From a virus (Duplodnaviria > Heunggongvirae > Uroviricota > Caudoviricetes): a DNA stretch of 43,746 nucleotides. The stretch lies in IMG/VR virus record IMGVR_UViG_2636416110_000005. The stretch is one strand, 5' to 3'. The notes below the pieces were generated by a model, which saw nothing but the letters and a program-made list of their open reading frames with translations, ran no database searches and had not been told where the DNA came from. The position numbers and the translations under genes are program-made. Below are positions 40,901 to 42,985 of the stretch, piece by piece (within the stretch, counting starts at the first letter, position 1; every line of letters starts with the position of its first letter).

Positions 40901-41446
40901 ACGGTAAATGAAAACTGTACGATTAAGGGCATGCTGGAGGCGACTCAGGTCAGAGGTGACTTCGTTAAAGCTGTATCCAAATCATTCCCGAAACAGGCTG
41001 GTACGTGGGGTAATACGGAAACACCAAACGGGACGGTTACAGTCACCATCAGCGATGATCATAACTTTGACCGTCAAATCATTATTCCGCCCATTATCTT
41101 TAACGGAATAGCGTATAGCGATCCGGGAAGTGGTAATAACCCGGGAGGTACAAGATACACGGGTTATGGTTTTGAAGTTCGCAAAAACGGTGTATTAATC
41201 GCATCCAGAGAAACTAAAGGGGCCATTCCCGGTAGCTACAGTGCGGTTATTGATATGCCGAGTGGCAGGGGAAGCGTCACTCTGGAGTTTAAGGTTTTCC
41301 ATAAAGGCAATCAGCGGGCAGGTAATATCACCGACTGTACGGTGATTGTGACCAAAAAAGCGGCTTCTGCGTATTTTCATGAAAGGAGATCACTCAATAA
41401 CTTCCATCGAGATCGGGTAATAACATTTGAACAGATCGCTGAATAA
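37973..41446 (+). CDS. J: tail tip/host specificity protein J
   Basis: 1157-aa ORF (lambda gpJ is 1132 aa); the last codons run into a 21-bp inverted repeat next to the IS21-like element. Confidence 0.9.
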
Positions 41447-41505
41447 CATCGATGGAGATCACTTTTGACTCATTTTGTTATTCAGTGATCTCCATCAATG
41501 TTATT
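41441..41505. repeat. 21-bp near-perfect inverted repeat with 22-bp spacer overlapping the J stop codon
   Basis: GAATAACATCGATGGAGATCAC (41441..41462) versus GTGATCTCCATCAATGTTATT (41485..41505), 20/21 complementary. Confidence 0.6.
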
Positions 41506-41560
41506 GGAACTTCACAGGTGTGTTGATCTGTATCTTTTGCCATTCCGGTAAAGGATACCT

Positions 41561-42985
41561 ATGCCAACAGTTCCAATTTCTATGAGAAAACTTAAAGAAA
41601 TTCTTAGGCTTAAATAAGGATGGGATGATACAAAACTAAAACATGCGTTCCTTCAGACCCAGGTTAAGATGAAGAAGCACTCTCTGCCTGACTGGGCTAC
41701 AGTACACCGGGAACTGCGTAATAAATGCGTGACGCTGCAGCTACTCTGGGAAGAATACTGTGAGCGTAATCCAGGCGGTTTTTACAGCTATAACCATTAC
41801 TGCCGGATGTACCGTGAATGGCTCAAAACCACTTCACCATCAATGCGTCAGGTACATAAAGCTGGCGAAAAACTTTTCGTTGATTACTGTGGACCTACCG
41901 TTGGCGTTACCGACCCTGAGACCGGAGAAATAAGAACTGCTCAGGTCATCGTAGCTGTTCTCGGGGCATCAAGTTACACATGGGCAGAGGCCACCTGGTC
42001 TCAGCAGCTTGAAGACTGGGTGATGAGTCATGTTCGCTGCTTCCAGTGGTTGGGTGGCGTTCCTGAACTTGTTGTTCCGGACAATCTGAAAAGCGCCACA
42101 TCCAGGGCATGTAAGTATGATCCTGACGTTAACCCTACCTACCAGCAGATGCTTGAGCATTATAATGTCGCAGTTTTGCCTGCGCGGCCACGTAAACCGA
42201 AAGATAAAGCCAAAGCTGAAGTTGGCGTTCAGGTTGTTGAACGCTGGATCATGGCCCGAATCAGGCATGAGATCTTCTACAGCCTTGCATCGCTTAATCA
42301 GCGCATTCGGGAGTTGCTGGAAAGACTGAATAACAAAATAATGCAGAAGTTGGGTTATTCACGTGCAGAACTCTTCATCCAGCTTGATAAACCCGCACTG
42401 AAGCCTCTTCCTGAAGCCAGTTACAGTTACACCCTGGTGAAGAAAGTCAGAGTTCATGCCGATTACCACGTGGAAATCGACAAACATTACTACTCGGTTC
42501 CATGTTCGCTGTTAGGCCAGCAACTGGAAGCATGGATCTCCGGAGAACTGGTAAGACTCTTCAATCAGGGGCAGGAGGTTGCTGTGCACCCGCGCAAGCG
42601 TACTTATGGCTACAGTACCCGCAACGAGCACATGCCTGAAGCTCATCGACAGCATGCCACCTGGACGCCAGAGCGTCTTCTGGAATGGGCGGGGCACATA
42701 GGCAGTGAAACTCATAGTTATGTGCTTCATATACTGAACTCTCGTCCACATCCGGAACAAAGCTATCGCTTCTGCCTTGGACTCCTGAACCTTCATAAAA
42801 AATACAGTAAAGCCAGACTTAATGCAGCATGTGCAAGAGCTCTGAAAACAAAGGTATGGCGTCTGTCAGGTATTAAATCGATCCTGGAAAAAGGTCTGGA
42901 TAAACAACCTGTTCAGGATCCAAAACCAGATCTGTTATCCACGATGGAACACGAAAACGTACGCGGCAGTGAGTATTACCACTGA
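41561..42985 (+). pseudogene. istA: IS21-family transposase IstA, N-terminal region disrupted
   Basis: MPTVPISMRKLKEILRLK then in-frame TAA (41615..41617), then [17 protein letters not shown] and the 438-aa ORF 41669..42985; the N-terminal HTH segment appears shortened relative to full-length IstA (from memory). Confidence 0.7.

Follow-up and report, generated by a model that had tools for sequence, protein, structure and literature searches.

Elements of the IS21 family end in repeated units (L1-L2 and R1-R2) with a spacing of 23 bp, and the two HTH domains of one IstA subunit make contact with each of these; integration needs no fewer than two complete units, CA forms the terminus, and in the reconstituted system the duplications are of 5 bp (PMC10122671). 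Extra or inverted inner units are not treated in the structural work on the family (PMC10122671, PMC11208146). As to the tail protein J of phage lambda, the allele J1127-1, listed as L1127P, alters the adsorption rate (PMC3176204). The DNA analysed here (a stretch of 43,746 nucleotides, hereafter the window) brings a J gene and an IS21-family element together near its right end. We are highly confident that the feature described below marks the left junction left behind when ISEc12, by simple transposition, entered J at its last codons, in a lambda-like prophage of the PhiR42_1 type. Such an event is ordinary and already known: a very common E. coli IS has entered a prophage gene. The features concerned are the following.

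37973..41367, plus strand: native part of J (codons 1-1131 and the first two bases of codon 1132).
41363..41367, plus strand: left copy of the 5-bp target-site duplication, GCTTC.
41368..43746, plus strand: ISEc12 (IS21 family), cut by the end of the window 85 bp before its right terminus.
41369..41446, plus strand: IS-encoded tail of the chimeric J, 25 codons and TAA (by translation and phase analysis).
41372..41463, plus strand: four tandem 23-bp direct units, putative IstA-binding sites (41372-94, 41395-417, 41418-40 and 41441-63).
41442..41463, plus strand: left arm of the inverted repeat, within direct unit 4; it holds the J stop codon.
41484..41506, minus strand: inverted copy of the 23-bp unit, including the right arm (41484-41505).
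41561..41617, plus strand: 5' remnant of istA, 18 codons followed by TAA, the gap in istA creating this TAA at 41615-41617.
41669..42985, plus strand: remaining istA ORF, 438 aa from an internal Met (Pfam PF00665 and PF22483).
42997..43746, plus strand: istB, the AAA+ helper ATPase (Pfam PF01695 IstB_IS21, E = 2e-67).
43732..43746, plus strand: inward-facing (inverted) right-end unit, which overlaps the stop codon of istB and makes up the final 15 nt of the window.

The element downstream of J is ISEc12, a member of the IS21 family, with istA and istB consecutive and co-oriented in that order. The name is that given by the RefSeq/PGAP annotation to copies 99.7-100% identical to it ('IS21-like element ISEc12'). 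With positions 41300-43746 as the query, a single place covering at least 80% of the query was found in 1771 E. coli records and 609 plasmids. Copies of ISEc12 lie in contexts unrelated to one another, such as ypfH, plasmid backbones, Ag43 and other prophage genes, and the matches in those contexts begin at window positions 41351-41367, not near 41560. The left terminus is at 41368 (terminal TG at 41368-41369), where the sequence reads TGCGTATT..., inside the J ORF and 74 nt upstream of the inverted repeat. The preliminary description was right to place an IS21-family element near the 3' end of J, but it set the boundary about 190 nt too far downstream: at the point some 60 nt past the repeat, where the istA/istB element was said to begin, only the start codon of istA is found (41561). 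The canonical length of ISEc12 is 2581 bp, with the ends TGCGTATTTTCATG...GGTAATACGCA in three independent copies (in ypfH, on a plasmid and in lom). The termini are of the form 5'-TG...CA-3' and carry imperfect terminal inverted repeats, TGCGTATTTTCATGAAAGGAGATC...GATCTCCTTCACGGTAATACGCA; the source contig described below and the three independent copies agree in this, and the copy in ypfH is accompanied by a 5-bp target duplication, CCTTG.

Other prophages also harbor this element. An independent ISEc12 was recognized inside lom, about 380 bp downstream of J, in a related prophage of E. coli G8 (6158-9341) and also in G6/7 and G1/2; both istA and istB of the G8 copy are annotated as frameshifted. 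Further top matches of ISEc12 lie inside prophage genes for a tail protein, virion morphogenesis and a polarity suppression protein.

The J ORF extends from 37973 to 41446 and encodes 1157 aa, with its stop codon, TAA, at 41444-41446. It is 25 codons longer than lambda J (1132 aa) and its stop lies in the left arm of the repeat, both as originally stated. Many E. coli genomes carry an uninterrupted J allele with 100% identity to positions 40900-41367, and this identity stops exactly at 41367, from where the uninterrupted alleles continue AGGCATCAGTATTCGTTGA to the native ending GISIR* (they read GCGGCTTCAGGCATCAGTATTCGTTGA across the insertion site), whereas the window continues into the IS. 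Codon 1132 takes its third base from the IS and so changes from TCA to TCT (both Ser); read in this phase, the IS has its first stop at its positions 77-79. In place of the native C-terminal GISIR there are thus 25 residues encoded inside ISEc12, and the suggestion that an IS insertion had changed the C-terminus of J is borne out. Since read-through in the other two reading phases would give tails of 4 or 16 residues, we infer that the position of the J stop inside the repeat is an accident of the reading phase of this insertion.

All six of the gpJ Pfam families (FNIII-A, Phage-tail_3, Ig_J, Ig_J_second, Phage_Tail_Tip and Ig_GpJ_C) were found in the chimeric protein above their curated cut-offs. 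The match to the receptor-binding domain, PF12421, reaches residue 1131 and covers profile positions 1-129 of 135, so that with GISIR gone the intact lambda-type C-terminus (...GIS[IV]x) is missing. The GIS(I/V) ending is kept in three divergent receptor-binding domains with solved structures, the lambda form being GISVV, and by alignment lambda residue 1127 is the residue just before GISVV. The paper on the lambda tail-tip structure contains nothing specific on the last five residues of J. Receptor binding by the chimeric J is probably altered or impaired, judging from the conservation of the GIS(I/V) ending, the adsorption effect of J1127-1 and the end of the PF12421 match at 129/135. On the minus strand, antisense to J, the window also contains an ORF of 674 aa (38573-40597), which is most likely a by-product of J codon usage and not a gene.

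By an exact-protein look-up, the chimeric J was found on contig JMJD01000003.1 of NCBI assembly GCA_000714975.1 (hereafter the source contig), and only two contigs on record encode this protein. Over 15.8 kb the source contig and the window agree at 100%, except for 117 bp of istA that the window lacks. Across the element it reads GCTTC|TGCGTATT...AATACGCA|GCTTC and then AGGCATCAGTATTCGTTGA. Past the IS come the displaced 3' end of J, a terminator-like hairpin, lom (199 aa), stf (the side tail fibre gene, 1024 aa) and tfa (191 aa), the J end and these three genes being intact, and a gene for a Pin-type recombinase. The phage PhiR42_1 is likewise collinear up to 41367 and again directly behind the IS, with an overlap that equals the duplicated bases. 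In viral, genome and metagenome contigs, exact scans gave no match to the J::IS junction, and none of the complete E. coli genomes of the collection has this junction.

The source contig also shows how far the prophage extends. It goes on for about 6 kb past the window (source contig 15892-22400) with the IS end, lom, stf, tfa, the Pin-type recombinase gene and ynaE/ynaM-like genes, and its right side runs up to a truncated MFS transporter gene. The native hairpin between J and lom (source contig 16019-16050; GGCGTCAGGAATGACGCCTTTTTTATT) has a T-run and is now separated from J by the 2.6-kb IS.

In this transposition ISEc12 landed five codons before the end of J, with duplication of GCTTC. Translation of J now runs into the IS for 25 codons, to the first in-frame TAA, and yields the chimeric protein of 1157 aa. 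As the IS is co-oriented, lom, stf and tfa are probably still reached by late transcription that passes through it.

The inverted repeat at the end of the J ORF has arms at 41442-41463 and 41484-41505, of which 21 of the 22 bases are complementary, with 20 nt between them (repeat search of the window). It had been given as 41441..41462 and 41485..41505; the repeat is real, and these coordinates were 1 nt off. Its 22-mer occurs at these two places only within the 43.7-kb window, against an expectation of 0 from 100 shuffles of the window. The left end of ISEc12 consists of TGCG, four direct 23-bp units, a spacer of 20 nt and one inverted unit, and the repeat is made up of direct unit 4 and the inverted unit. 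It is therefore intrinsic to ISEc12: an IS end structure, one of three options originally offered for it, is the correct one. The repeat is not well away from the IS end; the word 'adjacent' does not hold either, since it lies inside the IS.

The direct units follow TGCG in a 23-nt register (TATTTTCATGAAAGGAGATCACT; CAATAACTTCCATCGAGATCGGG; TAATAACATTTGAACAGATCGCT; GAATAACATCGATGGAGATCACT), and the inverted unit, CAATAACATTGATGGAGATCACT as reverse complement, has two mismatches to unit 4 over its 23 bases, and one of these falls within the 22-nt arms. On the left, GAGATC/CAGATC cores are found at ISEc12 positions 19, 42, 65 and 88, and the cores of the right end are at 18 and 41, as counted from the right terminus; Tandem Repeats Finder gave a period of 23 and 3.3 copies for the left end. 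The right end is a mirror of this layout, with two direct units, R1 and R2, 23 bp apart, plus one inverted unit. A relative from Pantoea, 93.5% identical, has the same end layout, and its inverted unit is conserved. On the virulence plasmid of Salmonella Enteritidis, a decayed ISEc12-like left end without istAB (3001-3111, by pefI; 82% identity, with an internal deletion) was recognized, and this left-end fragment is conserved in many 59-kb Salmonella plasmids.

By analogy with the solved IS21/IS5376 complexes, the repeat units are most likely binding sites of the IstA transposase. At each end, assembly of the synaptic tetramer probably takes place on the outer two units, in line with the solved complex of the family, and the inner and inverted units of ISEc12 may be accessory or regulatory sites. 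A literature search gave no paper characterising the ends of ISEc12 and none with an IstA-binding experiment on this element. Tandem or circle junctions of IS21 have abutted ends with a spacer of 2-3 bp. With the ISEc12 ends (41368-41381 and the right end) abutted over such a spacer, a -35-like TTCACG from the right end and a -10-like TATTTT from the left end would lie 16-17 nt apart. This arrangement suggests a candidate junction promoter for istA.

Could the IS have removed the DNA downstream of J? The preliminary description listed lom, stf and tfa as absent and proposed that the IS had deleted the tail-fibre region downstream. On such a reading, insertion of the IS, or recombination between IS copies, removed the 3' end of J together with lom-stf-tfa; nothing follows istB in the window, and J is without its native last five codons. 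However, these genes seem absent because the window breaks off with the stop codon of istB, before the last 85 bp of the IS, and their absence is true of the window alone. In the source contig GCTTC stands on both sides of the IS; the J codons that the window lacks come next, and then lom, stf and tfa, as a clean insertion leaves them, so there was no deletion; moreover, the downstream region is collinear at 98% with that of PhiR42_1, which is free of the IS. Unless the public assembly is chimeric at this place, deletion of the tail-fibre region by the IS is thus refuted, and we hold it to be very improbable. It is practically inconceivable that the 25 extra residues of J represent a natural variant. 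The ORF is indeed uninterrupted, and the lengths of J vary among alleles (1132, 1137 and 1165 aa), but all 25 codons lie in DNA that is 100% identical to the left end of ISEc12 elsewhere, the protein is encoded by just the two contigs mentioned above, and the Pfam match of the receptor-binding domain stops at residue 1131. Among J homologues, the 25-residue tail was found only as read-through into the IS.

The inverted repeat itself might be taken for a phage feature, either a terminator of the intrinsic type behind J or a site at which the nearby Pin-type invertase crosses over, since it lies at the end of the J ORF and a gene for a Pin-type serine recombinase is present downstream of tfa in the source contig. 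Yet the repeat is part of ISEc12 and accompanies it in well over a thousand genomes, in chromosomal and plasmid surroundings that are unrelated to one another, and it is absent from the uninterrupted J alleles and from PhiR42_1; both of these phage roles are excluded on this basis, and we give them almost no credence. Moreover, a hairpin with a T-run follows the native J stop, now beyond the IS, and the arms of an IS-borne repeat, only 20 nt apart, leave no invertible segment between them for a recombinase of the Gin/Pin/Hin type. An intrinsic terminator has a G+C-rich stem and a T-run, but this stem is followed by GGAACTTCACAGG, and a promoter and terminator scan of 41200-41800 found no site. 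A role of the repeat chiefly as an RNA hairpin, which would pause or process read-through from outside (here from the phage late operon) and so insulate istA, instead of or besides binding protein, is unlikely, though the repeat may have a secondary role as RNA. The predicted fold is stable (-32.7 kcal/mol, z = -5.5; none of 200 shuffles was as stable), and the hairpin sits between the IS terminus and the start codon of istA. Against this role, there is no T-run or terminator-like site and no Rfam family, only sub-threshold matches to generic (miRNA-like) hairpins, and the stem stops 56 nt short of the istA ATG, leaving the ribosome-binding site uncovered. Both of the arms are instead copies of the 23-bp unit, phased with the terminal units and recurring at the right end, in the manner of DNA-binding sites. 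The Pantoea relative is the only useful material for covariation, the Salmonella copy being decayed and internally deleted; in Pantoea the arms show no change, hence no informative covariation. We also doubt strongly, though less so than for the phage roles or a deletion, that the surplus phased units have a function of their own (the inner inverted pair acting like an operator or enhancer in istA expression or synapsis) and, as a separate matter, that the chimeric J assembles and confers an altered host range rather than being a dead tail tip.

Simple transposition of ISEc12 into J remains the preferred reading, and the copy in the window has one peculiarity. It is without the 117 bp that encode the first HTH of IstA (residues 19-57), with the junction at 41616/41617. 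These 117 bp are present in all other ISEc12 copies compared, including that in the public assembly of the same strain (GCA_000714975.1), which has a complete istA frame of 513 aa. The product of the remaining istA ORF contains the integrase (rve) core and the Mu-transposase C-terminal domain and is without the first HTH. A complete istA frame with the N-terminal HTH domains, which bears on the autonomy of the element and not on its family membership, is thus lacking in the window, and from its sequence this copy, as given, could move only if another copy supplied IstA. Scans of the collections for the junction of the 117-bp gap gave no match; the gap may be a real deletion, present in a second assembly of the strain, or an artefact.

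As for annotation, the entry for J of this prophage should show a gene split by ISEc12 rather than a variant of greater length, and the right boundary of the prophage should be extended by about 6 kb to take in lom, stf, tfa and the pin-type recombinase gene. An ORF that reads into an IS end can pass for a protein naturally extended at its C-terminus, just as truncation of a window within an IS can pass for a deletion. Should the chimeric J not function, particles from this prophage would fail to adsorb, which is relevant to this strain only. Beyond correct annotation, the importance of the insertion is little.

Compared with known systems, the element agrees with ISEc12 in its nucleotide identity of 99.7-100%, the istA-istB order, the TG...CA termini, the 5-bp duplication and the end units spaced by 23 bp; the window copy differs in the loss of the 117 bp of istA with the TAA at the junction, and in that its last 85 bp lie outside the window. 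The closest phage is PhiR42_1 (PV340562.1), an isolated temperate phage to which window positions 1-33965 are 99.0% identical and which is collinear throughout; its gene order, J-lom-stf-tfa-pin, matches that of the source contig. It differs in having no ISEc12 and an intact J of 1165 aa, the 3' third of which is a more divergent allele (91-96% identity). With lambda gpJ (PDB 8IYK, 8XCJ and 8XCK), the chimeric protein shares the full gpJ domain architecture and a related C-terminal Ig-like receptor-binding domain (PDB sequence match, E = 2e-45), and the J genes of phages 434, mEp460 and PhiR49_1 show about 95-97% nucleotide identity to the J gene here over most of its length; the difference from lambda lies in another allele of the receptor-binding domain and in the exchange of the last five native residues (GISIR) for the 25 encoded by the IS. 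With the IS21/IS5376 transpososome, an IstA tetramer on L1-L2/R1-R2 (PMC10122671, PMC11208146), ISEc12 has in common two outer direct units per end 23 bp apart, the terminal CA, the 5-bp duplications, an IstA with an rve core and an IstB that is an AAA+ helper. This situation is different, however, in the number of units: the structural work on IS5376 and IS21 deals with two per end, whereas ISEc12 has four phased direct units and one inverted unit on the left, and a third, inverted unit on the right.
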